Translations under genes and position numbers: made by a program
The notes under the pieces: generated by a model
What the model saw: the letters and a program-made list of their open reading frames with translations, nothing else
Databases searched by the model: none
Told to the model about the DNA's origin: nothing
NCBI GenBank assembly: GCA_963815115.1
Contig: CAWFFN010000009.1
Coordinates: forward strand, 1,376,001-1,440,000
Source: an uncultured delta proteobacterium
GTDB taxonomy: Bacteria > Desulfobacterota > Binatia > DP-6
DNA: 64,000 nt
Direction: 5' to 3'
Shown: piece after piece, positions 3,182 to 21,016 of the stretch
Position numbering within the stretch: the first letter of the stretch is position 1
How the letters are laid out: every line of letters starts with the position of its first letter

Positions 3182-3333
3182 GGTGTTCCCTTCTTTGCCC
3201 CGTGACGTGGCGACCGGTGGTTCGAGAGGCAGATACTACCGATGGTCGAGGACGGAATCACGGTGCCGGTGGACCACCTCTCGAGTGCGGCTGCGCGGTT
3301 GACAGCCGCCGAGGCCCCTCCGATGCTTTGCTC

Positions 3334-4287
3334 GTGCTGACGCTCGGGGTCCAGACCTGGGGCACGGACGTCGCGTCCCTTCAACGATATTGGGCGGCTG
3401 CCGAAGCGCTCGGCTACGATCGTGTCGTCTACGGCGACGGGCTCTGGCCGTGGACGTGTGACGGGTGGACGATGCTGGGCGCACTGGCCGTGCAGACGCG
3501 GAGGGTGCGCATCGGTCCCGCCGTGACGTACGCCATCGATCCGTCGTCGCACCACCCGTCATGGCTGGCGAAGCGCGCGACCACCGTCGATCAGCTCTCG
3601 AACGGCCGACTCGATCTGCGGCTGGGCATCGGAGCAGACGACGACGCGACCATGGACCTGTGGGAGAGTCATGGCGTTCCATATCCGCCGCGGGCCGAGC
3701 GCGTGGTCCGTCTCGCGGAAGCGGTCGAGATCATTCGCGCGCTCTGGCAGGGCGGCCCCGTCGATCGACGCGGGCGGTTCGGCGACCTCGTCGGCGCGGT
3801 CGGGGGACCGCCCCCGGTGCAGCGTCCTGGGCCGCCAGTATGGATCGCGGCCATGAGTGAACAGGCGCTGGCGCTGGTGGCCCGACTGGCCGATGGCTGG
3901 GAGGCGTCCTATCTGTCTCCCGCCGGGTTCGCACGGTGCTGGCGGGAGCTTCGCCGCCTCCTCGCGGCCGAGCGCCGCCGTCCCGAGAGCGTGCGCCGCT
4001 CGATCGAGGTCGACGTCGTGCTCGGCCAGTCCATGGCTGACGCCACGCTCGCTCTCGGGCGGTTTTGCGCTGCGCGCGGTATCGATCGGTACCATCGCCT
4101 CGTGGCCACGCTACTCGCCGGGGACGCGACGGCGGTGCAGCAGGCCGCGAGGGCCTACGAAGCGGCAGGTGCGACCGACCTGCTGCTCGGCTTTGCCGAC
4201 TTTCCTGCGACCGACATGTTGGAGGCGTTCGCGGCGACGGTGGTCCCCGCCCTGCGTGCCCAGGCAGCCGAGGCGAGCGTTCGGTGA
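3334..4287 (+). CDS. LLM-class flavin-dependent oxidoreductase
   Basis: Motifs AEALGYD, DGWTMLGALAVQTRRVRIG, LAKRATTVDQLSNGRLDLRLG and PVQRPGPPVWIA. GTG start at 3334 is inferred. Confidence 0.88.
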   Translation: MLTLGVQTWGTDVASLQRYWAAAEALGYDRVVYGDGLWPWTCDGWTMLGALAVQTRRVRIGPAVTYAIDPSSHHPSWLAKRATTVDQLSNGRLDLRLGIGADDDATMDLWESHGVPYPPRAERVVRLAEAVEIIRALWQGGPVDRRGRFGDLVGAVGGPPPVQRPGPPVWIAAMSEQALALVARLADGWEASYLSPAGFARCWRELRRLLAAERRRPESVRRSIEVDVVLGQSMADATLALGRFCAARGIDRYHRLVATLLAGDATAVQQAARAYEAAGATDLLLGFADFPATDMLEAFAATVVPALRAQAAEASVR

Positions 4288-4353
4288 CCCCCCAGATTCG
4301 GATCACGCACCTGTTTCGTCCCCGGCTACATGGCACCAGGGGTTGCCCCGGCC

Positions 4354-4480
4354 ACGAACCGGACAGCGAGTGGCCGCAGGCCCCCGGCGGGGACGAGAAG
4401 CTGACGACCGCACTGCTCGAGCGGATCGCGCACCAGGGCGACGCTCGTCACCACACACGCGGCGCAGTTTCCGGCCCAGG
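4354..4480 (+). pseudogene. Degraded IS21-family IstB ATPase C-terminal remnant
   Basis: Translates as TN..SEWPQAPGGDEKLTTALLERIAH, close to the IstB motif TNLxFSEWxxVFGDxKLTTALLDRLxHH. No start codon, and neighbouring frames are broken. Confidence 0.6.
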
Positions 4481-4888
4481 CACCGTGACGGCAGACCCCA
4501 CGACGTTCCTCCGCCCTCGCTGGAGGCCGCCTACCTGTCGCGATGTGGCGGACTGCTTGCGACGGGAGCCGGTGTTCAACGACGCAGCCGGTCCAAGGGT
4601 GCACGGGAAGCGCGAACATGGCCCCGAGCCACTCCACCAGGCCACCCGCCACCGCGCTGCTGCCCCGGTGAACGATGGGGCGCGCGGCCGCCTCGCAAAA
4701 GAACGGGTACGGAGCCAGAGCACCCCCAAAAACACCAGCCGCCAGCCATCTGCACTTGCCGCGGTCAAATGCCTCGCACTATGGTGCACCCCGTTCCGCT
4801 ACTCCTGGCCAGGAGACACCGCCGCGTCGGCTTCTGGTTATCATAGTAAGCTAGCTGACCTCCGGCGCTCTTGGGGAGACGCACATCG

Positions 4889-5905
4889 ATGAACTCGAAG
4901 CTCAAGGTCCTTGCCGTATTGCTTCTCGCGCCCGCACTGATGGGAGGCTGTCCCTATGGGATGAATGCCTCCTACTCGGGGTACCCCTTCACGAACGACT
5001 ATCACCTCTCGATAGCGAGCTCGTACCTGATCCCATCGATTCGCATCACCGTGCGCTGGGACGTCGTCCAACCATACTCAGCAGCGGATTTCGACATCTC
5101 ATCGCTAACACCTCTGGTCGATGCCGCGGTCGCCAGGCACATGCAAATTCTCATGGTCTTCCAGCAGGCCACCACCCCAGGGTGGGCTCGAGGCAGCAAG
5201 AACCGCAACTGCTCGAACAACAAGCCCGAAGCGTATCCTCCGAAGAACGACACTGATTTCGGGACTTTCGCCGGCAGGATCGCCCTCGCATTCAAGGGCA
5301 AGATCGAAGCCTAGGAGATCATGGCCGAGGTCAACCGCTGCTTTGGTTGGCAAGGTACACAAGGCGGGTTTGTCAGTAAGGTTCTCACACCTGCGTTCGA
5401 CGCGATTCGGGCACAGGACCCGGCCGCAAAGATCGTCGCCCCTGGCTTGCACAATGCTACGAACTTCAACGACTGGATAGCCTATGAGAAGAATCACAAG
5501 CACTACCTCTGGAGAGCGTTCGACTTTATCGCCATCCATGCGTACGGCGAGGTCGGCGCCAACAAGGGCTGGATCGACCAGGCGGCTCAGTACAACGTGT
5601 GCACCGAGGATGGTCATTGCCCGGCGGGCTTCTGGATCACGGAGTACGGCAACTTCAAGGACGATGACTCCTTCTCAAACCCGAATTGCAAGAACCGCGA
5701 ACGCTCGCCGGACCCGGGTGGCGAGGCGCTGGCCACGCTTCAGCACTGCTTAGACACCCCGAAGTGCAAAAAGGCCTTCTACTGGAATCTCAACGAGAAG
5801 GACGATTTCTGCGGTCTTGGAGTCATCGATGGAGCAGGCGCAGTAAGACCAGAATACCAAGGGTTCTTGAACTTCATGAAGGCCAATCCCGTCGACAGGC
5901 CTTGA
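4889..5905 (+). pseudogene. Lipoprotein-type clan GH-A glycoside hydrolase (GH39/GH5-like) interrupted by an in-frame TAG at 5312-5314
   Basis: ORFs 4871-5314 and 5321-5905 are in the same frame. The junction reads KGKIEA*EIMAEVN (compare xYEIWNEPN). Also IRAQDPAAKIVAPGL, FDFIAIHAY, FWITEYG and a lipobox-like LMGGC. GC is lower than the flanks. Confidence 0.75.
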
Positions 5906-6470
5906 GAAAGACCCGCCTGCGAAGCATCTTGGTCGTCCCGTCCTCACGGGGATGGTCCGCTCGCTGTTGAACGCGCCAGAGCGGCGGCTCGGATGCTGGG
6001 CGCTACGCGACCTCCTTTCGGCTGTCCAGAGTCTGGCGATCGAGCGCGCGGATGAATGCGGGGAGCTCGGTGATCTGCCGGCCTCGCCAACGTACACGTG
6101 CGAGTCGTACAGCCGGCCTTTCTCGACGGGCCCTACGAGCAGCTTCCGGAGGTGTCGATGATCAAACAGAAGGCCGCAGTGGTAGCGGCGGGGGTAGCCA
6201 GTGCCGACGAGGACGACACGGCACATGCTGAGTTGCTGGCGTTCAGCGCCGACGGCACCACTCTCGTCGCGGCACCGAGGATGATCCAAGCCTGGGCTCG
6301 GTCCGTAGGGCCTCACATGCCGCACGGGCCGTCGCGACTCAGCGCATGGCGGGTGGCGCACGCGGCTCTCCCGACGTGCTTGCGTTCCAGTCCGTTTCCG
6401 GGCGACAAGAACCGGCCGTGCTCCCGGTCGGCTCCCTCCGGGCGCGCGACATCTTTCCCGGGAAGGACGC

Positions 6471-8406: not shown

Positions 8407-9180
8407 TCAGGGGGGCGGGGGCTGCGCTTGCTCGGCGCGCAGGCGATCGAGCAGCGCCACGTAGGACTGCGGGCCGAGCGTGAGGGCGCCACGAAACGGC
8501 GTCTGCGTCTCGTGAATCAGGATCAGCGTCGAGCAGATGGTGGCCGCGAGCGCGCCCGCGATCACCCGGTGCGTGCGGACGCTCTCCATCCCGAACAGGT
8601 AGGTGAAGGCGACCGTGACGATGCCGAACACCACCAGGTAGCCCCACACGATGGCGGGAACGTTCCGGTTGGCGAACAGCACGCGCTCGCGTCGCGCCGT
8701 GCTGAGCGCATCCATCTGCTCGACGGTCGTCTGCCAGAGGGAGGTCTGCTTGTCGCCGTGCAGCTCGATGCCGAGCACGGCCGTCCACAGCCGGGCGTAC
8801 TCGTCCCAGCCTTCCGAGCTGGCCTCGGCGCGCTCCATCGCCGGCCACTCGTCCTGGATCACGATGCGCAGGTAGTCGGCGAGAGCCGTGCGCAGGCGGG
8901 CGGCGTCCGCCGGCGAGAAGCCCTGCGCGTGCCGGCTCAGGTTGCCGGCGGCATCGACCTCCATCTCGAGGGTGTGCCTGACGTTCTCGAACTGCTCCCA
9001 CGAGTCCACCAGCACGAACGCGAGGATGACGCCGTACAGCGTCGCCAGCACGGCGTAGGCGATCCCGGCGACCTCGTGCTGCTTGCGCAGGGCGTCCAGC
9101 GACACGCGACGTTCCACCACCACCAGGCCGAGGACGGCGAGCGTCACTGCCAGAACCAGGACGACGAGTTCGGTCAGCAC
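8407..9180 (-). CDS. DUF4239 family membrane protein
   Basis: Motifs LYGVILAFVLVDSWEQF, YLRIVIQDEWPAM, LSTARRERV and PFRGALTLGP, with 4 TM helices. Confidence 0.85.
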   Translation of the reverse strand: MLTELVVLVLAVTLAVLGLVVVERRVSLDALRKQHEVAGIAYAVLATLYGVILAFVLVDSWEQFENVRHTLEMEVDAAGNLSRHAQGFSPADAARLRTALADYLRIVIQDEWPAMERAEASSEGWDEYARLWTAVLGIELHGDKQTSLWQTTVEQMDALSTARRERVLFANRNVPAIVWGYLVVFGIVTVAFTYLFGMESVRTHRVIAGALAATICSTLILIHETQTPFRGALTLGPQSYVALLDRLRAEQAQPPPP

Positions 9181-9428
9181 GATTCCCTACCGCTCTTATT
9201 CACCCATTCCACGACGCTCGATAGCATCGCGGCTGCGAAAGGACGACGTGGGCGATCACGAATCGACGACGGGTGAGCGCGATCCGGCACGGAATGGGCC
9301 TGCCGTTCCAGGGGAGCCCGTGGCGGTCCCCGCGAGAGTGGGGTAGTCACGGGGCGCGACGCACTCGGAGGCGCGCCGGGTCTCCAGCACGCTTTGGGCG
9401 GGCCGCTTCACGGGTGCAGAGCAGGGAG

Positions 9429-10467
9429 ATGACGAGGTCGAGTCTGGCGCTGGACCGCGGCGGGGTCCTCTGGGGCGCAGTGGCCGTTGCGCTCGCCCTC
9501 GCGCTCGGAGCGCTCGGCAGCGGTGGTCTGCGGTGGTTCGACGCGGCACTCGCCGGCTATCTGCTCGGGACGCTGTTCGCCATCTTCGGGACCGTTTACC
9601 GCTACCGCGTGTGGTTGCGGCGCCCGCCCACCGCACTGCTCAACCGCCGGGGATGGGAAGCGTTCCGGCGCGGGGGCGTGGGGAACGTCGCGCGTCTGCT
9701 CGGGCTGGTATCGACCAACCTCGTCGGGCAGGCGTTCATACGCCACCGCTCCACCTCGCGCTGGATCGCGCACCAGCTCGTCTTCTGGGGCTGCGTCCTG
9801 GCCGCGCTCGTGACCTTCCCACTCGTCTTCGGCTGGCTCCACTTCGAGTCGGTCGGCCAGGACGCCGTCACGGTATCGCGCCTTCGTCGCGAACGTCGCC
9901 GTTCTCGGCTTCGATTCCCACGGCATCGTCGGCTGGCTGATGTTCCACGCGCTCGACGTCGCCGCTGTCCTCGTCCTGGCGGGCGTCTTCCTGTTTCTCG
10001 GCCGCCGCGTTCGCGACCCCGGGGCGCTCGCGGTCGAGCGCGCCAACGACTTCCTCGCCCTCGCCGGCCTGTTCGCCGTGTCCGTGACCGGTTTGATGCT
10101 CACGGCCTCGGCGCTCTGGATGGGCGGCCGCTTCTACACGTTCCTGACCACCGTGCACGCCCTGACCGTGATCATGGGGCTGATGTACCTCCCGTTCGGC
10201 AAGCTCTTCCACATCTTCCAGCGACCCGCGAATCTCGGCGTGCAGTTCTACCGGCAGGCCGGCGCCGACGGGCCGCCGCAGCACTGCTGCGAGTGCGGCG
10301 CCGCGTTCGCCTCCGCGCTGCAGGTCGGGGATCTCAAGGACGTCCTGCCGCAGGTCGGATTCGACTACGCGCTGGCGGGCGGCGGTCACTATCAGGACGT
10401 CTGCCCGGCCTGCCGCCGGCGCCTGGTGGCGCTCGCGCAGACGCGACGCGTCGCGGGGTTCGGCTGA
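9429..10467 (+). CDS. NarI/nitrate-reductase-gamma-like multi-TM protein with C-terminal Zn-ribbon (frameshift near 9870)
   Basis: ATG 9429 after GGGAG. TM helices with WIAHQL, FHALD and VHALTVIMGLMYLPFGKLFHIFQRP (His pair 18 residues apart). C-terminal CCECG...CPACR. Removing one extra G at about 9872 joins the two ORFs. Confidence 0.75.
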
Positions 10468-12705
10468 TGGCCACGCCCCCCGCTGAGCGACGCGGAGCTG
10501 ATCGCGCGCTACGGACCGCACCTCAACGAGGCGCCCCCGGGCGGATGGAACCAGGGCCTGGACGTCGACCGCGAGGTGAAGACGCATTGCTGCTTCTGCG
10601 GCCAGCAGTGCGGCATCATCCTCAAGGTGAAGGACGAGCGGGTGGTCGGGTTCGAACCCTGGTACGAGTTCCCCTTCAACGAAGGCAAGCTCTGCCCGAA
10701 GGGCGTCAAGCGGTACCTGCAGGGCGAACCATCCCGATCGCCTGCTCGAGCCACTCGAGCGTGCGCCGGACGCGCCGGGCGGCTTCCGGCCGATCGGCTG
10801 GGACGCCGCCCTCGATCGCGTGGTGGCCGAGATCCGGCGCATCCAGGGCGCCCACGGTCCCGATGCGTTCGCGATGCTCTCGGGCGTCTCGCTGACGAAC
10901 GAGAAGTCCTACCTGGTCGGCAAGTTCGCCCGCCTGGCGCTGGGCACGGCCAATCTCGACTACAACGGCCGGCTCTGCATGGTCTCGGCCGGCGCCGCGA
11001 ACAAGAAGGCGCTCGGCATCGACCGGGCGAGCAACCCGTGGAGCGACATCCGCCTGGCCGACGTGGTGTTCGTCGCCGGGGCGAACGTCGCCGAGTGCGC
11101 TCCCGATCACCACCAGCTACATCTGGCAGGCGCGCGACCGGGGCGCGACGCTGATCGTCGCCGATCCCCGCGTCACCCCGCTGGCGCGCACCGCCGACGT
11201 GTTTCTCGGCCTGCGTCCGGGCACCGATTCGGCGCTCATGGGCACGATCCTGCACGTGCTCATCGTGCGCGACTGGCTCGATCACGACTTCATCGATCAG
11301 CACACCGAGGGCTTCGCGGAAGCGGCCGAGGCCGTGCGCGACTACACGCCGGCCTGGGGCGCCCGCGTGACCGGCGTCCCGGCGGCGCGCATCGAGCGCG
11401 CCGCCGAGCTCTGGGGAACCGCGAGGACGGGTATGCTTGCTGCACGCGCGCGGGATCGAGCACCACACCAAGGGCGTCGAGAACGTCCTGTCGTGCATCA
11501 ATCTCGGGCTGGCGACCGGCAAGTACGGCAAGCCCGGGTGCGGCGTGACGACGATCACGGGCCAGGGCAACGGCCAGGGCGGCCGCGAGCAGGGACACAA
11601 GTGCGACCAGCTGCCGGGCAATCGCGACATCACGAATCCCGAGCACCGCGCCTACGTCGCCTCCGTGTGGGGCTGCGACGTCGCCGAGATCCCGGGCAAG
11701 GGCAAGACCGCACAGGAGATCATGGACGCGATCCATGCCGGCGAGATCAAGGGCCTGCTCTCGATCTGCTTCAATCCCGCGGTCTCGCTGCCCGACACCA
11801 CCTTCACCGCCGCGGCGCTGGACCGCCTCGAGTTCTATGCCGTCATCGACTTCTTCCTCTCGGAGTCCGCGCGACACGCCGACGTCGTCCTGCCGGGATC
11901 GCTGCACGAGGAGGACGAGGGCACCTCGACGACGGTGGAGGGACGCGTCGTCAAGATCAATGCCGCCATCCGCCCGCCCGGCAAGGCCCGGCGCGATTGG
12001 CAGATCCTCGTCGACCTGGCGCACCGGCTCGGGAAGGGCCGGTACTTCCCCTACGGCAGCACGCGGCAGATCTTCGACGAGCTGCGCGTCGCCTCGCACG
12101 GCGGGACCGCCGACTACACCGGGATCACCTGGCAACGCGTCGAGGACGAGCTCGGCGTCTTCTGGCCGTGCCCGGCGGAGGGCCATCCCGGCACGCCGCG
12201 CCTGTTCGAAGGCGGGCGCTTCTACACCGACACCGGCCGAGCCAGGTTCCACCCCGTCCGCCATCGCCCGCCCGCCGAGGTCGTCGACGACGAGTTCCCG
12301 GTCTGGCTGACCACCGGTCGCGTCGTGAGCCAGTACCTGTCGGGGACCCAGACCCGCCGCATCGCGCCGCTGGTCGCGCAGTATCCGGAGCCACTGTGCG
12401 AGATGCATCCGCTCCTCGCCGCGCGCCACGGCATCCAGGACGGGGACGTGGTCCGGGTGACGTCGCGCCGCGGCGCCATGACCCTGCCGGCGGCGGTCGT
12501 CGAGACCATCCGGCCCGACACGGTCTTCATCCCCTATCACTGGGCCGGACGGCAGGCCGCCAATCAGCTCACCCATCGCGACCTCGACCCGATCTCGAAG
12601 ATCCCGGAGTACAAGGTGTCGGCGGTCCGTATCGAGCGCGTGGGTCCGGGCGGTGCGGTGCGAGATGCGCGCGACCTGTCGCTGCGCACGGGGAGCGCGT
12701 CGTGA
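10467..12705 (+). CDS. Mo-bisPGD oxidoreductase catalytic subunit, NasA/NarB (nitrate reductase)-like; 4 frameshifts
   Basis: 4Fe-4S motif [11 protein letters not shown]...GKLCPKG, Mo-Cys ligand motif [23 protein letters not shown], and a C-terminal LTTGR..SGTQTRR...[10 protein letters not shown] domain. ATG overlaps the upstream TGA. Single-base insertions at about 10480, 10726, 11104 and 11437. Confidence 0.85.
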
Positions 12706-13331
12706 CCCGTCTCGCGGGCGTCGGGGAGAAGATCTTCGTCATCGATCAGAGCCGCTGCATCGGCTGCCAGTCGTGCGTCCAGGCCTGCGGCGAGTGCGGC
12801 ACCCATCGCGGGCACTCGATGATCCATCTGGACTTCGTCGACCGCGGCGCCAGCACGCAGACGGCTCCGATGGTGTGCATGCATTGCGAGGACCCGACGT
12901 GCGCCGAGGTGTGTCCCGCCGACGCCATCAAGCAGAACGAGGACGGCATCGTGCAGTCGGCGCTGAAGCCGCGATGCATCGCCTGCGCCAACTGCGTCCT
13001 GGCCTGCCCCTTCGGGGTCCCGAAGCTCCTGGTCGAGCTCAACCAGATGATGAAGTGCGACATGTGCTACGACCGCACCTCGCAGGACCTCGCCCCGATG
13101 TGCGCCTCGGTCTGTCCGAGCCAGGCGTTGTGGTTCGGGACGCGCGAGCAGTTCGCCGCCGGCCGCGCCGGCGTGCTCGTGAACGACTTCGTGTTCGGGC
13201 GCCAGGCCGTGCGCACCAAGGTCTACACGGTCGCGCGCGAGGCCGGACCGCTCGACGTGCTGGCGGGGCGGCAGGCACGAGCGTGGCAGGACGATCCCTT
13301 CGGCCTCGACGAGGAGGGCGCGCATGGCTGA
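12702..13331 (+). CDS. 4Fe-4S dicluster electron-transfer subunit (DmsB/NrfC-like)
   Basis: [37 protein letters not shown] and [13 protein letters not shown] motifs. GTGA overlap with the upstream gene. Confidence 0.92.
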
Positions 13332-13822
13332 CGCGGACACCCCGAAGTGGCGGGTCGATTTCCCGTTCACGGCCGCCGGCGAGGACGACGTGACGCGCCG
13401 GGAATTCGCGCGCTATCTGGTGCTCGCGTCGGGGACGTTCGCCGCCGGCAGCGTCGGCGTCGCCCTGCTGACGACCCTGCGCCCGGTCAAGCGCGGCGCG
13501 CCGCGGGCGATCGTCGCCTCGCACGCGCTGCCTCCGGGCGCGACGTACCTGTTCCGTTACCCCACGGAGTTCGACCCGGCCATGCTGGTGCGCTTTCGCG
13601 GCGGTGATCTGCGCGCCTATAGCCAGAAGTGCACGCACCTCGGCTGTGTCGTCACCTGGGATCCGGCGAGCGAGCAGATGCTCTGTCCCTGTCACGAGGG
13701 CGTGTTCGACGCGCGCAGCGGGCTGGTCGTCGCCGGGCCGCCGCAGCGTCCGCTCGGGCGCATCGAGGTCGAGGAGCGGGCCGACGGCATGGTGTGGGCG
13801 CTCGGGGCGGGAGGTCGACTGA
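13324..13822 (+). CDS. Rieske [2Fe-2S] protein with twin-arginine-like signal/anchor (apparent fusion to the next gene is a frameshift artefact)
   Basis: [15 protein letters not shown] followed by a TM helix, then [14 protein letters not shown] and GPPQRPL. Removing one G at about 13806 gives ...LGREVD* ending at TGA 13820-13822. Confidence 0.88.
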
Positions 13823-14013
13823 TGGCCCGGGCGCGCCAGGTGTCCTCCGCGATCGGGATATTCGTCGGCGTGCTGCTCGCGCTGCAGGTCTTCCTGCTCT
13901 CGGTCGGGCTCGACGCCCTGCACGCGCACGACGAGCGGCTCGCGTGGACCGCGGCAGCGCTCTCGGTCGTGCTCGCCGCCGGGTCGGGCGCCTTCTACCG
14001 GTATCTGCGCTGA
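13822..14013 (+). CDS. Small 2-TM protein (DUF6755-like)
   Basis: GGAGG RBS upstream and TGATG overlap. [33 protein letters not shown]...WTAAALSVVLAAGSG. Confidence 0.7.
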   Translation: MARARQVSSAIGIFVGVLLALQVFLLSVGLDALHAHDERLAWTAAALSVVLAAGSGAFYRYLR

Positions 14014-14695
14014 TGGCGGGCGAGCCGGGTCGCGTCCCGCCCGCACCACCCGGGTCCGATCGGCGGCGACATGGCGGCGGTCCTGTGGGGCATCGCGCGC
14101 CGGCTCCAGCTGCCGGCCCTCGAGGCCCGTCATTCCCAGATCGGCGTCCTCGGTCTGTTCGCCCTGGTGAACGGCGTCATCTCCATCGGGCTGATGGCGA
14201 TGGCAGCCTTGCTGACGGGCGCTCCGTTCATCTTCCCGTCGCTGGGACCCACCGCGTTTCTGCTCTTCTACACGCCGACCCTCCCCGCGGCGTCGCCGCG
14301 CAACACGCTCGGCGGGCATCTGATCGGCGCCCTCGCCGGCTATCTGGCGCTGGTCGTCTTCGGCCTCACGGAACGCGGCCCGGCGCTGGCCTCCGGGGTG
14401 GAGTGGGCGAACGTCGGCGCGGCCGCGCTGTCGCTCGGTCTGACCAGCGGCGCCATGGTCTGGCTGCAAGGTTCCGCACCCGCCGGCAGGCGCGACCACC
14501 CTCATCGTCTCGCTCGGCATCCTGCACCGGCCCTGGCAGCTCGCCGTGCTGATGCTCGCCGTCGCCCTCCTGCTCGTCCAGGGCTTCGTGATCAACCGCC
14601 TGGCGGGCATCGACTATCCGGTCTGGGCGCCGCGGCCGGGTCCGGCACCAGGCGCGCCGCCCGCGCGCGTCCCCGATCGGACGAGCGTCACCTGA
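14013..14695 (+). CDS. HPP family transporter (frameshifted)
   Basis: FPSLGPTAFLLF..P.ASPRNTLGGH. After removing an extra A at about 14469 it reads VPHPPAGATTLIVSLG (HPP motif) to TGA 14693-14695. Confidence 0.85.
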
Positions 14696-15004
14696 GGCTC
14701 GTGCGGCCGCTCCGTGAGCGTGCCGCGATGCGGTCGACGCCGATCAGTCGAATCCTTTGTGCGACGATGGCGAGCACCTTCACTTCAGCGTATGTGGGAA
14801 CGTTTCTCTCGTCGCGCTGCCGACACCGCGATCGGCCAATCGCGGGCGCGACGAGCGATATCCCGAGCGTGGGCTCGCAGCCTACCGAGCATCCGGCTCG
14901 TGTGGTGGCCGGAGCAGGAACAGGACCCTGCCTAGCGTGACGTGAGGAAGATGCTCCCACTGGAGGCGGTTGGGCGGTTTGCGCGCGCTGCGTCGTTTGA
15001 CGTC

Positions 15005-15885
15005 TCACTCCGGCGCGCCGAAGTTGTTGGGCTCGAGAGCCTGGCGGGGGGTGAGCCCGAAGCCGATGTGGGTGCCGAAGACCGCCATTGCGAGCGCCTG
15101 GAATGCGGGCGGAGGTGTGATCGCGTTGGGCTGCTTCGTGGACACCACTTCGATCGTCGTCCGGCGGGCGGGCGAGTACATCGCGATCGACTCGTAGCCG
15201 GCGAAGCTGCCGGTTCCACCGATGAAGCCACCGGTCTTGACGAAGCCCAGTCCGTACTTCCATCGCCCCGGTCCGTTGTAGCCCCCTGCGAACTCGAACG
15301 GCACCGCATCCTTGTTCGCCGCCTTCCACACTGCCCGTTTGAGCAGCGCACCGGTCGCCAATGCCCGGGCCCACACGCGCATGTCAGCGAGTGTGGAGAC
15401 CATGCCCCCGTGCGCCCACAGGCACGACGCCGGCAAGGGCGTGGCGTCATCCGAGGCCGTCGGCGCCTGCGTCGGGAAGGTCTCTCCGGTCCCGTACCCG
15501 TGGGTGAACGGCGCGCTCAGGCCGTTGCCCGAGGTTGGAAGGAGGGTTCGACGGAGACCCAGCGGCGTGGCGATGCGTTGCTGAAGCGCCGTGCTGAGAT
15601 CCTGGCCGGTGACCAGCTCCACAACCCGGCCGAGCAGGTTGTAGCCGTAGTTGCTGTAAGACCATTTCGTACCCGGTGCCGCGATCGGAGGAGCCGTCGC
15701 CTCGATCGTGAGCAGCTCGTCGACGGTACAGCCGGTGGCGAGCTTCGCCTGGATGGCCGGGAGGGAGAAGCCATCCCCGAGACCGCTGGTGTGATTGAGC
15801 AGCTGTCGGATCGTGACCTGATCTCCGTTGGGGACAGCAGCGATCCACTTGGAGATGTGGTCATCGAGAGAGACCGTGCGCTCAG
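15005..15885 (-). pseudogene. 5'-truncated serine hydrolase (beta-lactamase/peptidase S12 family)
   Basis: SLDDHISKW, TIRQLLNHTSG, WSYSNYGYNLLG and WAHGGMVST motifs. The frame is closed by TGA just upstream (about 15909), so the SxxK motif and start are missing. Confidence 0.75.
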
Positions 15886-16311
15886 CCCCCGTTCGGACCC
15901 GCTCGGGTCAGTCGTCCTCACTGCCGTGCCCGTGAGGAAGCCAGGCGTCGACTCGCACTCCTGCTGGCCCCGGTCAAGCCAGCGTCCGCGAACGCCGAGC
16001 CGCTGCTGTCGCAACCGGCGCCGCCGTCGCCGCGCTTCCGCGTCTTCGCCGGTCGACCAGCTGGGAACGATAAACGCCCGTTTCGGCGAACGCTGACCGA
16101 ATGCCCCGTTCTCAGACGTTCCTCTGGACACATCCGCCGTCTATTGCCACTGCTCGCGGTGTCGCACGCGAGTGGCGCCGCTTTCGGGGCGAATGCCGAC
16201 GTCCGGCGGAAGCACTGGACGCTGGCCTCGGGCGAGGATCTCCTCCGTGAGTTCGATTCTCCTCTGTTTCTCGGTCCCTCGGCATCGTCAGCTGCGACGC
16301 GTCGGATTCGC

Positions 16312-16680
16312 CTACGGCGCCGGATAGACTGCTTCGATCATCGAGCTGCTCGACAGCACTTCGACCGACGCGCGGATGGAGCTCCTGCCACCGTCAACGG
16401 TGATCTCGCAGAAGCGATCGCCTGACGCGCCGTGGCCTGGCGCAGCTCGCGTTTCAAGCGGCGGGATGGTGAACCCCACGTGCCCGGTCGTTCCCCCGTT
16501 CAGATCGAAGACGTCGATCCTGGCGACGACGGTCTTGAGGCTCACGTTCGTCACCAGACAGAAGAAGGTCCCGTCGTCGTCTGGGATCACTGGTGGGGTG
16601 AAGATGGTCGTCGCGTGCGCTGCCGCGGCCAGGATCACGGGAAGCACGCTGGCAAGCACAAGTCTTGGGAAGAAGTTCAT
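16312..16680 (-). CDS. Small secreted hypothetical protein (beta-rich, 2 Cys)
   Basis: Signal peptide MNFFPRLVLASVLPVILAAAAHA, preceded by an AAAGGA RBS. Confidence 0.7.
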   Translation of the reverse strand: MNFFPRLVLASVLPVILAAAAHATTIFTPPVIPDDDGTFFCLVTNVSLKTVVARIDVFDLNGGTTGHVGFTIPPLETRAAPGHGASGDRFCEITVDGGRSSIRASVEVLSSSSMIEAVYPAP

Positions 16681-16880
16681 CAGACACATCCTTTCGGGCG
16701 CGCGGCGCCCGGCTTTGGTCTTGGTCCGCTGATCGTTCACGGAACCGTCTGGAGCTTGGAGAGCATCAGCACCACGGAAGGGCGCTCCCTTTCGGGGTAG
16801 CGGCTGCGAACGGAACCGCCGAGACGGTATCGGTCCGACGGGAGACATGGCGGCCCGTAGCAGCGCTGAGCCGACTGCGG

Positions 16881-18311
16881 TCAGGGTATGCCCCTACCGG
16901 CCGGTCCACCTTCGGGATCTATCGCGCCGTTCCCAGGAGAGCTCGTGGTCGTGGTCGAGGTGGCTACTGCGCTGAACCGGTCCTGCTGGACGTTGAAGCG
17001 CACGCCATCGGACTGCAGCCACACGGCGATCGCGTTGCCGTTCGCGTCCGCGCCGACGGCCGGATTGAAGGCGCTGCCGGCGTCGTCGGATTCGAGCAGC
17101 TGCGCCGCGGCGCCCCACCCGGAGCCCGGACCGGAACCTTGCGCGTAGCGGTTTGCGTAGATACTCCAATTCGTCCCGGAGCCAGTGTTCTGCACCCACA
17201 CGGCAATTGCATTGCCGCTCGGGTCCATGGTGATCGCAGGAGCGACCGCTTCCCCGACATTGGACTCGACCAGCTGCGCACCGCCCCAGTAGTTCGAATC
17301 CAAGGTGTATCGGTTCGCCCGGATGTGTCCTGACTCAGCCCATACGGCCGTGGCATTGCCGGCGGGGTCGACGGCGACCTTGGCCGAAGTGATGGAGAGG
17401 GACAACCCATCGGATATCTGCAGCGGCGTACTCCACGAACCGAAATTATCGAAATAGTGGGCTGCCCAGACGCTCAGGAGCCCACCGAGACCGAGACCGT
17501 ATTGCTGCCGCCACACCGCGATCGGGATGCCCGACTGGTCTGCCGCAATCTCGACATCGAAGGCTTCGACCCCCTCGGGCTGCGAGACCAAGACAGGTGG
17601 ATCCCAGGTACCGAACAAGGACTGAAAACGGGTCGAGTACACGCCGAAGTGTTGGCCGTCGTACTGGGTCCATACAGCGAGCGCGTTGATATTGAGGGGG
17701 TCGATGACGACCTTCGGCAGGCTCGCGTCGCCGGGCCTGTGCTCGAGGAGTATCGGTGCACCCCACACGTCATTGAAGGAGTGCGCGGCGTAGATGCTGT
17801 AGCTGTTGCTCTCGATATCCTGCTGCGCCCACACGGCCCAGGCCGAGCCCTCCGGGTCGACCGCGATCCGGGGCGCTTGCGTATCCGTGAGCACGGACTG
17901 GAGGTATTTCGGCGCACTCCATCCAGAACCCGGAACAAAGCGGCTCGCCCGGATTCTCGGCGTCGTGCCGTCATGCTGCAGCCAGATGGCGTGCGCGATG
18001 CCATTTGGAGCGATGGCGACTCGGGGATACTGCGCATCGCCCGAGGCGATGGTTTCGATCAGCTGGAGCGTGCCCAAGCCAGAACCCGTTGTGTAGTTTC
18101 GCGCCCAAATGTTCGTGCGCGGCCCATCGGTCTGCACCCACACGGCGACGGCGTTGCCGTTCGCTGCAACGGCGATGTCGGCGCCCGTCGCGTTGCCCGG
18201 ATCGTTCTCGATCGGTTCCGACGTGCCCCAGCCTTGACCATACGCATTCAGCGAGACCAGAACCCCCAGCGTTGCAATCCACCTGATGACGATTGCCAGC
18301 GCGCGCGTCAT
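16881..18311 (-). CDS. Secreted repeat protein, probable beta-propeller
   Basis: Signal peptide and about 8 repeats of the type PxVAxDxxGNAxAVWxQ...I.A.RY....W..P..LE, with a short Thr-rich tail. Confidence 0.8.
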   Translation of the reverse strand: MTRALAIVIRWIATLGVLVSLNAYGQGWGTSEPIENDPGNATGADIAVAANGNAVAVWVQTDGPRTNIWARNYTTGSGLGTLQLIETIASGDAQYPRVAIAPNGIAHAIWLQHDGTTPRIRASRFVPGSGWSAPKYLQSVLTDTQAPRIAVDPEGSAWAVWAQQDIESNSYSIYAAHSFNDVWGAPILLEHRPGDASLPKVVIDPLNINALAVWTQYDGQHFGVYSTRFQSLFGTWDPPVLVSQPEGVEAFDVEIAADQSGIPIAVWRQQYGLGLGGLLSVWAAHYFDNFGSWSTPLQISDGLSLSITSAKVAVDPAGNATAVWAESGHIRANRYTLDSNYWGGAQLVESNVGEAVAPAITMDPSGNAIAVWVQNTGSGTNWSIYANRYAQGSGPGSGWGAAAQLLESDDAGSAFNPAVGADANGNAIAVWLQSDGVRFNVQQDRFSAVATSTTTTSSPGNGAIDPEGGPAGRGIP

Positions 18312-18847
18312 GACGAACCTCCCATTCTCCGTTCGCACCTCGTGTGCGGTCGTGGGACGCCGCTCCGGGCGCTCCCATGGGTCTCGCTCGCGCGTCTTCG
18401 AGTGGGGGCCGTCGTGCTCCGCGCGCGAGCTAGTGACGTGTCCGGACGCGGACGACCCGCGGCGGGATGCGCGCCGCGTGCACGGGTCGGCGGGCACACG
18501 GATGGTTCCACCCCCACCGCGTCACGCGGGGGACCGGACCAGTCAGCAGCCTGATAGACTGGTAGCGTGCATCCAGGCCGACGCGTATCGGTCTGCGCGG
18601 CCCCGTTCAGCAACGCTCCCTGTCGCCGCGCGGTACGCATCCTGGTGCTCATGCGCTACCCTTCGGGTAGCGGCCCGCTACCCGGTCGTCGTTCGTGCAA
18701 CGCGCGGCGCGGTGCGCCGGCGAACCGAAGATCCGGTCGCTGCGACTACACCCGTACGAACGCCCGCAGCTTGCGAGCAGTGTCGCTGGCACCGAGCCGA
18801 TGCCACACTCACCGTACGCGAGGCGGTGCGCGCGAGAGAGCATCGCT

Positions 18848-19270
18848 TCACTCGCCGACGCGCACCGCGGCGACGCCTGATGCCGGCCAGCCGTTCTCGG
18901 CGAGAGAATCCGGGGGGCGCACGGACCGATGCGCTCCTGACGATCTCGGCGACGTCGGGAACCGCAGCCTCTTCACGAAGTGCTCGTAGTGGTCTTGCGT
19001 CGAAGCGAGCCCCGCGGAGGCGCGCGAGCAGGACGAGGCGCCGGTGGCGGCGCGCAGAAGCCGCAGGCGGAGAGGGACGTCGTCTTCGATGTGCTCCTTT
19101 CGGCTGTCGGGTGAATCGGGACCCGAGTGGCCGATGTGCCACCCGGCGTCATATCCCCTACGCACGACACCGGATGGCGGATCACCCGCCGCCCCAAAAT
19201 GCCCCCCGAGCGACTCGACGGTGCGGGTGCGCTCCGGCGCGATCGCGCCGGGATACGTGGGCCCGTCCAT
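18848..19270 (-). pseudogene. Possible highly eroded alpha/beta-hydrolase remnant
   Basis: Scattered motif-like pieces (PERTRTVESLG, GDP, GYDA, IGHS, HFV) in a 140-aa ORF. Weak evidence. Confidence 0.25.
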
Positions 19271-19378
19271 GGGCCGCGTACGAGAGCCTGGCCGAAAAAC
19301 CGATGGTAACGTTCGCCGAAGGCGAAAATGGGCCGCGGGCGTTGACGCCAGCGGGAGGGAGGCAGTAGTCAGGGCCCC

Positions 19379-21016
19379 ATGCCAGAGTACTCCGTCAACC
19401 CCGCCGGCGAGCGCTTTCCTCTTCCGGAGAAGAGCGAGTATGCGACCGAGCTCGCCCGGCTCGAGCAGCTCGCGAAGGCGGCCCGCGCAGAAGGCAAGGA
19501 AGTCGTGGTGGTCATGGGCGTCGGCTTCGTCGGCGCCGTCATGGCCGCGATCGTCGCCGACACGGTCGGCCCTGACGGGAAGCCGAGCAAGTTCGTGATC
19601 GGCTGCCAGCGCCCGAGCACGCGCAGCTACTGGAAGATCCCGATGCTGAACCGGGGTCTGTCACCGGTGAAGGCCGAGGACCCCGAAGTCGATCCGATGA
19701 TCCGGCGCTGCGTCCTCGAGAAGAAGACGCTGACCGCCACCTTCAACCCCGACTGCCTCCAGCTCGCCGATTGCGTCGTGGTCGACGTCCAGTGCGACTA
19801 CTCGAAGCGGAACCTCGGCAACATGCGCACCGGCGAGGTCGAGATGGGCGCGCTCGAGGCCACGCTGCGCACGATCGGCGACAAGATCGGGCCCGACTGC
19901 CTGACGCTCATCGAGACCACGGTCGCGCCGGGCACGACGGAGTTCGTCGCCTGGCCGATCCTGCAGCGCGCGTTCGCCGCGCGCGGCATCTCGTCGATGC
20001 CGGTGCTCGCGCACAGCTACGAGCGCGTGATGCCCGGCCGGGAGTACGTCGCCAGCATTCGCGACTTCTGGCGCGTGTGCAGCGGCTGCGACAAACCCGC
20101 GCGCGAGCGCGTGGTCAAGTTCCTCACCGAGGTGCTCAACACGAAGAAGTTCCCGCTCACCGTCCTCGACCGGCCGATCGAGTCGGAGACGGCGAAGATC
20201 GTCGAGAACTCGTACCGCGCCACCACGCTCGCGTTCCTGAACGAGTGGAGCCTCTTCTCCGAGCGCAACGGCGTGGACCTCACGAAGGTGATCAAGGCCA
20301 TCAAGGTCCGGCCCACGCACAGCAACATGATCTTCCCGGGCCCCGGCATCGGCGGCTACTGCCTGCCGAAGGACGGCGGGCTCGGCTACTGGGCCTACAA
20401 GCACATCCTGGGATTCGACGACGGCGACCAAGTGTTCAAGATGAGCACCACCGCCATCGACGTGAACGACACGCGCGGGCTGCACGTCGCCACGCTGACG
20501 CGCGACGCGCTCCGCAACATGGGGCGCTACATCGCCGGCGCCGAGGTGCTGATCTGCGGCGCCAGCTATCGGCAGGACGTCGGCGACACGCGGTACAGCG
20601 GCTCCGAGGTGGTCGTGCGTCGACTCACCGAGATGGGCGCCGACATGCGGGTGCACGACCCCTACGTCGAGCACTGGTTCGAGTTCGAGGAGCAGGACAC
20701 GTACCCGTCGCCGGGCCATTCGCTCGCGCGCTTCTTCCGCAACCAGGCGAACCTGACCGAGCTGCGCGTGCAGTCCGACCTGAAGGCGGCGCTCCACGGC
20801 GTCGAGGCGGTCATCCTCGCCGTGCCGCACGAGCCCTACCTGGCGCTGACGCCGGAAGAGGTCGTCGAGATGGCGGGCGGCCCCCTGGCCGTGATCGACT
20901 GCTTCGGCATCCTCGACGACGACAAGATCCGCCGGTTCTTCGAGCTCGGCTGCGAGGTGAAGGGCCTGGGTCGCGGGCACATCCAGCGCCTCAAGCAGGA
21001 AGTGCACGAACGGTAG
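19379..21016 (+). CDS. Nucleotide-sugar dehydrogenase (UDP-glucose/GDP-mannose/UDP-ManNAc dehydrogenase family)
   Basis: Rossmann motif VMGVGFVG, plus IETTVAPGTT, ERVMPG, AKIVENSYR, PGIGGYCLPKD and SYRQDVGDTRYS. Confidence 0.92.
   Translation: MPEYSVNPAGERFPLPEKSEYATELARLEQLAKAARAEGKEVVVVMGVGFVGAVMAAIVADTVGPDGKPSKFVIGCQRPSTRSYWKIPMLNRGLSPVKAEDPEVDPMIRRCVLEKKTLTATFNPDCLQLADCVVVDVQCDYSKRNLGNMRTGEVEMGALEATLRTIGDKIGPDCLTLIETTVAPGTTEFVAWPILQRAFAARGISSMPVLAHSYERVMPGREYVASIRDFWRVCSGCDKPARERVVKFLTEVLNTKKFPLTVLDRPIESETAKIVENSYRATTLAFLNEWSLFSERNGVDLTKVIKAIKVRPTHSNMIFPGPGIGGYCLPKDGGLGYWAYKHILGFDDGDQVFKMSTTAIDVNDTRGLHVATLTRDALRNMGRYIAGAEVLICGASYRQDVGDTRYSGSEVVVRRLTEMGADMRVHDPYVEHWFEFEEQDTYPSPGHSLARFFRNQANLTELRVQSDLKAALHGVEAVILAVPHEPYLALTPEEVVEMAGGPLAVIDCFGILDDDKIRRFFELGCEVKGLGRGHIQRLKQEVHER

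Follow-up and report, generated by a model that had tools for sequence, protein, structure and literature searches.

A conserved operon linking a NasC-type molybdenum subunit to a NarI-like cytochrome b and a Rieske protein: a candidate membrane-bound nitrate reductase

The window analysed here is a 64,000-nucleotide stretch of contig CAWFFN010000009.1, taken from the genome assembly of an uncultured delta proteobacterium of the Binatia. Between positions 9429 and 14695 it carries six genes on the + strand which encode, in this order, a NarI-like cytochrome b, a NasC-like molybdenum (Mo) subunit, an iron–sulfur (FeS) protein, a Rieske protein, a small DUF6755 protein and an HPP-family membrane protein (Table 1). 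The first start codon and the last stop codon fall exactly on these two positions. Below we examine whether this operon may encode a membrane-bound nitrate reductase. The initial annotation, made from the letters of the sequence alone, had described six genes joined by overlapping stop and start codons, and we observed such overlaps at all five junctions (TGATG at 10467, GTGA at 12702-12705, ATGGCTGA at 13324-13331, TGATG at 13822 and TGATG at 14013). Identical overlaps are present in an intact homologous locus, L001, and the domain assignments of that annotation agreed with the Pfam and NCBIfam matches. The G+C content of the operon is 70-73%, as across most of the window. In the region 9000-15200 no sigma-70-like promoter was detected, and the five terminator-like sites found there are all weak, one of them lying at 14734-14751.

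Reading frames were judged by alignment to L001. As written, the window copy has broken frames: the FeS and DUF6755 genes alone run in a single frame, and the insertion near 13804 joins the Rieske and DUF6755 frames into one open reading frame (ORF), 13324-14013, so that these two genes, initially described as separate, are fused in the window. The alignment has 13 gap columns. These include eight uncompensated single-base insertions in the window (Table 1); the remaining columns are a compensated pair at 12693/12696 and an in-frame three-base insertion at 12716. When the eight bases were left out, all six genes were open from start to stop codon without any internal stop, with 79-93% identity to L001 (89.6% for the cytochrome b, 93.0% for the Mo subunit and 79.3% for the HPP gene). 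The six-gene observation is thus confirmed, with the broken frames as its one qualification.

Table 1. Features of the operon in the window; insertions are relative to L001, positions are those of the window
Feature	Coordinates	Strand	Remarks
Shine-Dalgarno-like AGGGAGA	9417..9423	+	precedes first ATG; read from sequence
NarI/HdrE-like dihaem cytochrome b	9429..10467	+	345 aa read through; one inserted base near 9864
NasC-like Mo-bisPGD catalytic subunit	10467..12705	+	744 aa read through; insertions near 10481, 10726, 11105, 11438
Four-cluster [4Fe-4S] electron-transfer subunit	12702..13331	+	209 aa, GTG start; frame intact in window
Membrane-anchored Tat-type Rieske [2Fe-2S] protein	13324..13822	+	165 aa read through; insertion near 13804
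DUF6755 small protein with two predicted TM helices	13822..14013	+	63 aa; frame intact
HPP-family membrane protein, putative nitrite/anion transporter	14013..14695	+	226 aa read through; insertions near 14040, 14464

The Mo subunit contains the domains MopB Fe4S4 (PF04879, 53.6 bits), Molybdopterin (PF00384) and Molydop_binding (PF01568), together with an N-terminal 4Fe-4S cysteine motif and the cysteine ligand motif GRLCMVSA. Both motifs quoted initially for this subunit, RLCMVSA and a second one, were found in the window translations, and the reported lack of a twin-arginine translocation (Tat) signal was also borne out, there being no RR in the first 40 residues of the L001 protein. The best-matching hidden Markov model was NasC (NF047855), which gave 796 bits with the L001 protein against a cut-off of 1100, and 511 (C-terminal 422 residues), 107 and 47 bits with the window fragments. 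The L001 protein also fell short of the models for the formate dehydrogenase (Fdh) alpha subunit (TIGR01591, 589 bits, cut-off 666), for NapA (274-287 bits, cut-offs 904-930; TIGR01706, 274 versus 930) and for NarG (TIGR01580, 48.5 bits, cut-off 1084). The L001 proteins were also far below the cut-offs of both arsenite oxidase models (AioA, TIGR02693, 148 versus 359 bits; AioB, TIGR02694, 34.5 versus 95.65 bits). Because the Mo subunit lies below the curated cut-offs of NasC, Fdh-alpha, NapA and NarG, it is none of the classical enzymes, and the initial statement that the system is neither NarGHI, NapAB nor classical Nas is upheld.

The best sequence matches of the Mo subunit in the Protein Data Bank (PDB) are formate dehydrogenases, and the 31 matches listed include no Nas-named chain. 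Cys-Met occupies the ligand position of the Mo subunit, whereas the five best-aligned Fdh chains have C/U-His there. At the second motif the residues are GGRE in the Mo subunit, GA[CS]D or GSCD in four aligned Fdh/YjgC chains and ARE in Rhodobacter NapA.

Next, we placed the Mo subunit in a tree of 44 rows (quick IQ-TREE search, LG+G4, SH-aLRT support only), made up of 26 loci drawn from the 72 that had at least 90% coverage, together with the copy from a Deinococcus plasmid and 17 annotated references borne on plasmids; of the 28 loci picked, L021 and L074 dropped out because of short coverage. The 27 operon-linked sequences form one clade (SH-aLRT 100), and the sequence of Brevibacillus, which has the same operon, is its sister (98). 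Together they nest in a NasC-type clade (100) with the nirB-adjoining genes of Paenibacillus, Skermanella and Deinococcus aquaticus, although several reference branches are long and their exact places unsure. Proteobacterial NasA and NapA are found in a separate clade (98), and three FdhF rows lie outside all nitrate reductases (99). An identity as formate dehydrogenase was rejected on the missed Fdh-alpha cut-off, the Cys-Met in place of C/U-His, the GGRE motif and the outlying FdhF rows, and the initial assignment to the nitrate reductase side of the family stands.

The FeS subunit matched Fer4_11 with 71.8 bits. Its matches to DmsB, FDH-beta and HybA are all under the cut-offs, and NarH (TIGR01660) reached 36.7 bits against a cut-off of 524. 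In L001 the subunit has 17 cysteines in four classical motifs, and it is thus a four-cluster protein of a subfamily other than NarH. The small protein that follows the Rieske gene matched DUF6755 (PF20540) just under the cut-off of 27, with 21.3 bits in the window and 26.0 bits in L001; positional orthologues in two other loci gave 59.6 bits (L050) and 28.4 bits (L049), and the RefSeq name of the positional orthologue in Deinococcus is 'DUF6755 family protein'. The last gene is above the cut-off of 27.2 bits for HPP (PF04982), with 60.9 bits for a window fragment and 95 bits for L001. Nitrite transport has been demonstrated for an HPP protein (Maeda et al. 2014, as cited in PMC7438415).

The cytochrome b has six predicted transmembrane (TM) helices and a cytoplasmic C-terminal domain with four cysteines. 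The second half of the window gene matched PF02665 with 24.1 bits (cut-off 22.9). NCBIfam matches were obtained with TmcC, QmoC and HmcE (E 2e-8 to 2e-5) and, weakly, with DsrM, all far under the family cut-offs, and no bc-type cytochrome b family was among the Pfam and NCBIfam matches. An AlphaFold2 model of the L001 protein had a pLDDT of 90.3 and a pTM of 0.83. Foldseek gave no match to this model in the PDB at E <= 0.001; the two matches to which it assigned probability 1.00, with weak E-values, are Mycobacterium smegmatis EtfD and NarI. VIA-align ranked NarI first (Z 10.2, rmsd 5.4, 181 aligned residues) and EtfD second (Z 9.7, rmsd 3.9, 219 aligned), and the cytochrome b of the b6f complex reached only Z 5.6.

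Among 28 cytochrome b sequences, H115, H243 and H261 are invariant and H173 is nearly so, and the C-terminal CxxC...CxxC is kept except in two Bacteroidota rows. Lysine plus arginine (K+R) counts place the N-terminus (3), loop 59-111 (11), loop 192-207 (4) and the C-terminal domain (7) inside, and loops 32-38, 135-166 and 231-238 outside. With this topology the outer haem would be bound by H173/H243 and the inner haem by H115/H261.

The Rieske protein matched PF00355 with 38.7 bits. Its best NCBIfam matches are QcrA of the bc1 complex and PetC of the b6f complex (~53 bits, below the cut-offs), and the arsenite oxidase small subunit matched weakly (34.5-36.8 bits). All 26 sequences compared share the Tat consensus R25-R26-x-F28 and the boxes C-x-H-x-x-C and C-P-C-H, which include both of the disulfide cysteines that are typical of bc-type Rieske proteins. 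A W-x-x-D-F-P stretch ahead of the twin arginines is conserved as well.

Complex formation among the subunits, as initially predicted, was supported by multimer modelling for the pair of cytochrome b and Rieske protein, which scored 0.61 versus 0.00 for the best of three controls. The mark used for such models was reached by 116 of 157 solved complexes and by 2 of 215 mismatched pairs; these counts apply only roughly here, since the alignments were our own. At least 89% of the contacts are common to the runs, and the partner pLDDT is at least 82. In the model, the cluster loops of the Rieske protein (105-112, 122-126 and 137-139) lie on residues 137-149, 163-172 and 224-240 of the cytochrome b, which are the K/R-poor loops of its outer face. 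The Rieske TM helix packs on TM2 and TM6, and its N-terminal residues 7-24 contact cytochrome b residues 58-65 on the inner face. The model supports, without proving, docking of the Rieske protein on the outer face of the cytochrome b. Memorised structures seem a less likely source of this success, because the solved complexes of Rieske proteins with cytochrome b use another cytochrome fold.

The initial annotation had supposed that similar clusters might exist in other genomes. A scan of a genome collection for the Mo subunit found 584 relatives among 600 pattern matches; the total is estimated at ~2000 stored genome stretches, some of which may be ordinary NasC. The locus counts given here cover the best 80 of these relatives. 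In 61 of them the genes for cytochrome b, Mo subunit, FeS protein and Rieske protein are collinear and tightly spaced; the operon is far beyond chance. In four further loci, whose labels read Armatimonadetes, Chthonomonas, Chthonomonadaceae or just 'bacterium', FeS-Rieske precedes cytochrome b-Mo on the same strand, and two have all four core genes with broken Mo alignments. Twelve loci end before the full core could be judged. A single one (L066) is without FeS and Rieske genes although it is not cut short in this way, and the core genes are present in 67 of the 68 loci long enough to judge.

The gene order is conserved across phyla, the locus labels spanning at least eight. Record titles name Acidimicrobiia, other Actinomycetota, Binatia, Holophagaceae/Geothrix, Armatimonadota, Deinococcales, Planctomycetia, Omnitrophota, Gemmatimonadaceae, Thermodesulfobacteriota, Pseudomonadota and Bacteroidota, and among the cultured carriers are Desertimonas flava, Geothrix alkalitolerans and Chitinophaga arvensicola, besides Deinococcus and Brevibacillus. 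The operon is found on four Deinococcus plasmids, with 65-66% identity. On one of them, pDrdI of D. wulumuqiensis, RefSeq lists in order an 'MFS transporter' (the cytochrome b), a 'molybdopterin oxidoreductase family protein', a '4Fe-4S dicluster domain-containing protein', a 'Rieske 2Fe-2S domain-containing protein', a 'DUF6755 family protein' and a 'nitrate/nitrite transporter'. A replicon of Brevibacillus laterosporus has the four core genes with 33-47% identity. In a large protein collection the cytochrome b forms at least 3379 clusters at 90% identity, with source names such as 'hypothetical protein', 'nitrate reductase gamma subunit' and 'MFS transporter'. In the annotations concerned (L101 7889-9001; P0017, P0066, P0111), NCBI uses the last of these names, which looks like a misannotation, and JGI gives 'nitrate reductase gamma subunit' for some copies.

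We also surveyed the flanks of the 80 loci, using crude ORF calls that were clustered and of which the cluster representatives were annotated. A SLAC1/TehA-like anion channel lies directly downstream in 27 of the 80, HPP genes were found in 13 and CLC genes in 5. Genes related to nitric oxide (NO) stress recur, namely ScdA-hemerythrin of the RIC type (13/80), an Rrf2 regulator (9/80), truncated globin (7/80) and NnrS (3/80, L001 included), as do regulators of the ArsR (6/80) and Crp/Fnr (3/80) types. YwiC is a neighbour in 12 loci, and four, among them L010 (10290-11711), have a NuoF-like gene (Complex1_51K plus NADH_4Fe-4S) in the vicinity of the operon. In Geothrix the neighbours include two NarK-type MFS transporters, MoeA and MobB. 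Genes of alternative complex III (ActD, NrfD-like) were noted downstream in three Geothrix-type loci.

Five carrier genomes, those of the source organism, Geothrix alkalitolerans, Chitinophaga arvensicola, Desertimonas flava and a complete Acidimicrobiia metagenome-assembled genome (MAG), were searched for other nitrate reductases. NarG was found in none of the five, and NapA over its cut-off in none. Because four or five unrelated anion-transporter families adjoin the operon, substrate or product would have to cross the membrane, and this points to a cytoplasmic active site; the NO-stress genes in the flanks fit the production of nitrite. From this context we infer that nitrate is the substrate, that quinol is the donor and that the active site faces the cytoplasm.

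The initial interpretation is supported, since none of the refuting outcomes that could be computed was observed. On balance, we read the operon as encoding a membrane-bound, quinol-linked nitrate reductase that faces the cytoplasm, a fourth architecture distinct from Nar, Nap and classical Nas. Its role is more likely to be dissimilatory, in respiration or redox balancing, than assimilatory. In the proposed complex the NasC-type, Cys-ligated Mo-bisPGD subunit and the four-cluster FeS subunit would sit on the cytoplasmic face of the NarI-type dihaem cytochrome b, which would be joined in the membrane by DUF6755 and by the Tat-inserted, disulfide-type Rieske protein, with the Rieske cluster outside and near the outer haem. 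Quinol, possibly menaquinol, would be oxidised at an outer-face site formed by the Rieske protein and the haem. The electrons would then pass through the two haems across the membrane, along the FeS chain and to the Mo site, where nitrate would be reduced to nitrite in the cytoplasm in a Nar-like redox loop. HPP may move nitrite or nitrate across the membrane, a task that SLAC1/TehA-like, NarK-type MFS or CLC proteins could fulfil in other hosts.

Several points weigh against this nitrate reductase model. A plain Nar-like loop offers no evident task for the Rieske protein, and the operon encodes no acceptor for it. Arsenite oxidase, too, pairs a Tat-signal Rieske protein with a Mo subunit that has no signal of its own, and there the Mo subunit is co-exported. 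Many carriers, such as Deinococcus, Chitinophaga and Desertimonas, are aerobes, which fits an assimilatory or other non-respiratory role, and Heylen and Keltjens took the Bacillus cluster as assimilatory (PMC3475470). NirB over the cut-off, NirK and NrfA are all absent from the source genome (no search was made for NirA or NirS). The full-length L001 cytochrome b stays below the PF02665 cut-off (16.6 versus 22.9 bits), and fold Z-scores of about 10 are no higher than what helical bundles may attain by chance. Nitrate reduction itself is something we infer, because no experiment on any member of the family was found.

These points bear on three other readings of the function. The complex could serve nitrate assimilation, as an 'alternative Nas' which takes its electrons from the quinol pool and not from NADH or ferredoxin, and which hands nitrite to an unlinked assimilatory nitrite reductase. 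The closest Mo relatives outside the clade are nirB-linked assimilatory enzymes, the aerobic carriers would suit such a role, and it is what Heylen and Keltjens proposed for the nasC-FeS-Rieske genes of Bacillus bataviensis (PMC3475470). We nevertheless consider it unlikely: no nirB, nirA or glutamine-synthetase cluster recurs among the annotated flank clusters of the 80 loci, which hold instead the RIC-type, Rrf2, globin, NnrS and Crp/Fnr genes counted above; at least three carriers have a second Nas/Nap-like gene elsewhere; and the source genome has no over-cut-off NirB, as just stated. It is also conceivable that the enzyme is periplasmic, its Mo and FeS subunits being co-exported with the Tat-signal Rieske protein in the way that AioA is with AioB, and the cytochrome b serving only as quinol dehydrogenase and anchor. 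The Rieske twin arginine is invariant (26/26) and the Mo and FeS subunits have none, the Rieske protein shows the weak matches to the arsenite oxidase small subunit already mentioned, and Wells et al. put AioA beside NasC/NasA (PMC7331816). The anion-transporter families in or adjoining the operon are, by contrast, what a cytoplasmic active site would be expected to have. The conserved K/R-rich cytoplasmic loop 59-111 and the C-terminal domain of the cytochrome b could dock the FeS subunit, and a mere signal peptide would not usually have the 20-residue cytoplasmic N-terminus that is conserved in the Rieske protein. A periplasmic location therefore appears highly unlikely to us.

Less probable still is another substrate, be it chlorate or perchlorate, selenate, iodate, arsenite or formate, or a nitrite oxidase working in reverse, with the nitrogen-oxide context being secondary. 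The missed NasC cut-off, the long branch of the clade relative to characterised Nas enzymes and a Rieske subunit that recalls those of arsenite and iodate enzymes (AioB/IdrB) could all be taken in that sense. However, the Cys-Met and GGRE residues form the pattern of nitrate reductases and not of Fdh, the Mo subunit nests within nirB-linked nitrate reductases, and the flanks are related to nitrate, nitrite and NO, with no arsenic, selenium or chlorite-dismutase genes recurring among the annotated clusters. A bolder extension, which we regard as quite unlikely, would make the Rieske protein and the NarI-type cytochrome b a new class of quinol oxidase whose cytochrome is non-homologous to that of bc1/b6f. 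It would split the electrons of quinol, sending one inward to nitrate and the other through the outer Rieske cluster to a periplasmic carrier, and the operon would then also be a living intermediate between Nas-type enzymes and the Rieske-containing arsenite and iodate oxidoreductases.

A separate question is whether the window copy is functional. All eight lesions are single-base insertions, and there are no deletions, nonsense codons or rearrangements. In the four genes that have equal length in both loci (3963 nt), 372 of the 494 substitutions between the window and L001 are at third codon positions, and 329 codon differences are synonymous against 117 non-synonymous. This excess of third-position and synonymous changes indicates that the reading frames were under purifying selection until very recently. 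One public DNA run contained part of the stretch (share 0.19), and near-identical short-read contigs from it were without the extra base at 10475 and at 14467, which are the only two insertion sites covered (2/2). One base is likewise missing at 10722 from a 94%-like contig that belongs to another run. The covering contigs have a depth of less than 5, so this evidence is suggestive and not final.

We then scanned the whole genome for frame switches, that is, for a high-GC3 coding signal that changes frame without a stop codon. In 6.89 Mb there were 578 such events, 417 of them +1 and 161 of them +2. The densest patch, at C9:1449583-1459111 (~9.6-19 kb past the end of the window), has 18 events, 17 of them +1. 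Others lie at C9:1726050-1729096 (8 events), C8:834552-838835 (5) and C12:677838-683097 (6), and 5 events lie within the operon. Because the short-read contigs lack the base at both covered sites, and because there are further +1 patches in the genome, we consider assembly error likelier than decay: the eight +1 frameshifts are probably a local consensus error of the assembly. Against this, five of the eight insertion sites have no near-identical read cover, besides the low depth at those that are covered.

Alternatively, the operon may be a true pseudogene cluster in the source genome, inactivated soon after its horizontal acquisition. There are eight frameshifts in 5.3 kb while most long genes elsewhere in the window are intact, no second copy of the operon was found in the genome, and the cassette is foreign to the genus (0/4 genomes). 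A decaying cluster would have to be reconciled with lesions of a single kind, with overwhelmingly synonymous substitutions, with short-read contigs that lack the extra base and with serial +1 patches elsewhere, the last fitting consensus errors, and we judge true inactivation to be somewhat unlikely. Mo gene copies in five other sequences (L021, L039, G012, G022 and G024) also have broken alignments or in-frame TGA codons, so frame breaks in this gene are not unique to the window assembly. Two further frame-switch signatures lie outside the operon, at window positions 42944 and 50403 (+); these could be frameshifts or merely adjacent genes.

How the operon came into this genome was addressed by comparing its relatives. 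Similarity between the window and L001 is limited to 9428-14634 (87.4% nucleotide identity), and the flanks are unrelated. An orthologue of the Mo subunit was found in 10 of 40 relatives of the source organism, in none of 4 of the same genus and in 6 of 24 of the same family. The copies of relatives within the family or class mostly share 61-67% identity with L001, the figure being 83% for one genome of the same class (G042), whereas the window copy is 92% identical. The patchy orthologues, the high identity to L001 and the unrelated flanks together point to a recent horizontal acquisition of the 5.2-kb cassette.

Some observations made around other copies hint at mobility. A TrwC relaxase adjoins the operon in the chromosome of the complete Acidimicrobiia MAG (L015 2259-4925), and two IS6 transposases lie upstream of it on a Deinococcus plasmid (L101 2816-4580). 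In the window, a 16-nt inverted repeat (9218-9233 / 14722-14737, 88% complementary) brackets the operon and could be due to chance; other flanking repeat pairs are short, imperfect and at chance level.

Just upstream of the operon lies a divergent gene, 8407-9180 (-), which encodes a Bestrophin-like domain protein (PF14023, 176 bits) and may be an anion channel; it is outside the stretch common to the window and L001. Around window positions ~3157-6468 the G+C content falls to 0.58-0.63 and no ORF with a high-GC3 signal was found, so that this part may be foreign or non-coding DNA. A lower G+C content (0.64-0.67) was also seen at 15000-19400, a region that contains a beta-lactamase-family fragment (15005-15622) and a 538-amino-acid ORF without a Pfam match (16881-18497, -).

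The initial annotation knew of no characterisation of this architecture. In the full-text literature, with subscription journals outside its coverage, we found no biochemical characterisation or description of the operon apart from one passing note, and no paper on 'DUF6755'. That note, by Heylen and Keltjens (2012, PMC3475470), reports that the gene of a 729-aa NasC of B. bataviensis is linked to genes for an iron-sulfur protein and a Rieske-type protein, a linkage 'consistently shared with other species'. The linkage of nasC with FeS and Rieske genes had therefore been noted by 2012, but we found no account that works out the function, the membrane architecture, the phylogenetic breadth or the cytochrome b. 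Two published systems that came up in the searches are different: the Nap cluster of Caldithrix with a Rieske protein and cytochrome b (PMC5317091) has a periplasmic NapA and a bc-type cytochrome b, and the dual Sec-Tat proteins of PMC5449189 differ as well.

If the proposed function is correct, many bacteria would reduce nitrate by an enzyme that is not counted in narG/napA marker surveys. Annotation pipelines file its Mo subunit as assimilatory NasA/NasC or as 'molybdopterin oxidoreductase', and its cytochrome b as 'MFS transporter'. The carriers include Acidimicrobiia, Holophagaceae/Geothrix, Armatimonadota, Deinococcota, Bacteroidota, Binatia and Bacillota, and the operon may explain nitrate reduction in carriers, because NarG and over-cut-off NapA are absent from all five genomes searched. 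Wells et al. (2020, PMC7331816) state that the Fdh/Nas/Aio/Nap clade is not associated with four-cluster or membrane-anchor subunits, a generalisation which the operon contradicts. A 2023 survey by Wells et al. assigns 18.6% of MopB sequences to NasC/NasA (PMC10100899). A Rieske protein working with a non-bc cytochrome b would also bear on the evolution of quinol-oxidising sites. As several carriers are in culture, the question is directly testable.

Finally, we compared the operon with known systems. Like NarGHI of E. coli (PDB 1Q16), it combines a Mo-bisPGD subunit with a four-cluster FeS subunit, a dihaem NarI-type cytochrome b and a link to nitrate/nitrite transport. NarI is the best structural match of its cytochrome b (Z 10.2), and H243 and H261 lie on the last helix 18 residues apart, a spacing also seen in NarI. 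Unlike NarG, which is Asp-ligated and ~1250 aa long, the operon's Mo subunit is a Cys-ligated NasC-type protein of 744 aa. The FeS subunit, of 208 aa, is far below the NarH model (36.7 versus 524 bits), the cytochrome b has six helices and a C-terminal 4-Cys domain, the Rieske and DUF6755 subunits are extra, and no NarJ gene was seen. With NasC, NarB and NasA the operon shares a Mo subunit in the NasC-type clade (SH-aLRT 100), the Cys ligand motif and the lack of a signal peptide; it differs in its partners, which are the four-cluster FeS protein, the cytochrome b and the Rieske protein and not NasB/NirB, ferredoxin or flavodoxin.

The resemblance to bc1/b6f lies in the Tat-type, membrane-anchored Rieske protein with both cluster boxes and the disulfide cysteines, and in a cluster tip that the model places on the outer face of a dihaem cytochrome b. 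The cytochrome b of the operon has the NarI/HdrE fold, in contrast, there is no cytochrome c1 or f and no subunit IV, and the electrons presumably end at Mo. HdrE/DsrM/TmcC/QmoC-type anchors and M. smegmatis EtfD are NarI-type cytochromes that feed cytoplasmic FeS proteins. The operon's cytochrome b resembles them in its sequence matches to TmcC, QmoC, HmcE and DsrM and in the EtfD fold match (Z 9.7), although it is far below all the family cut-offs; to our knowledge, none of these systems is paired with a Rieske protein or a Mo enzyme. AioAB, which is periplasmic, likewise has a signal-less MopB subunit of the Nas/Nap/Aio group and a Tat-signal Rieske subunit, whereas the Mo subunit of the operon keeps the Cys ligand and the operon adds the four-cluster protein, the cytochrome b and the anion transporters. 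The B. bataviensis nasC-FeS-Rieske cluster is probably of the same operon type, although it was noted in passing and read as assimilatory, and the passages on it say nothing about a cytochrome b, a location in the membrane or a spread across phyla (PMC3475470). Set beside these systems, the operon unites a catalytic subunit of the Nas type and a Rieske subunit with a Nar-like logic of electron transfer.

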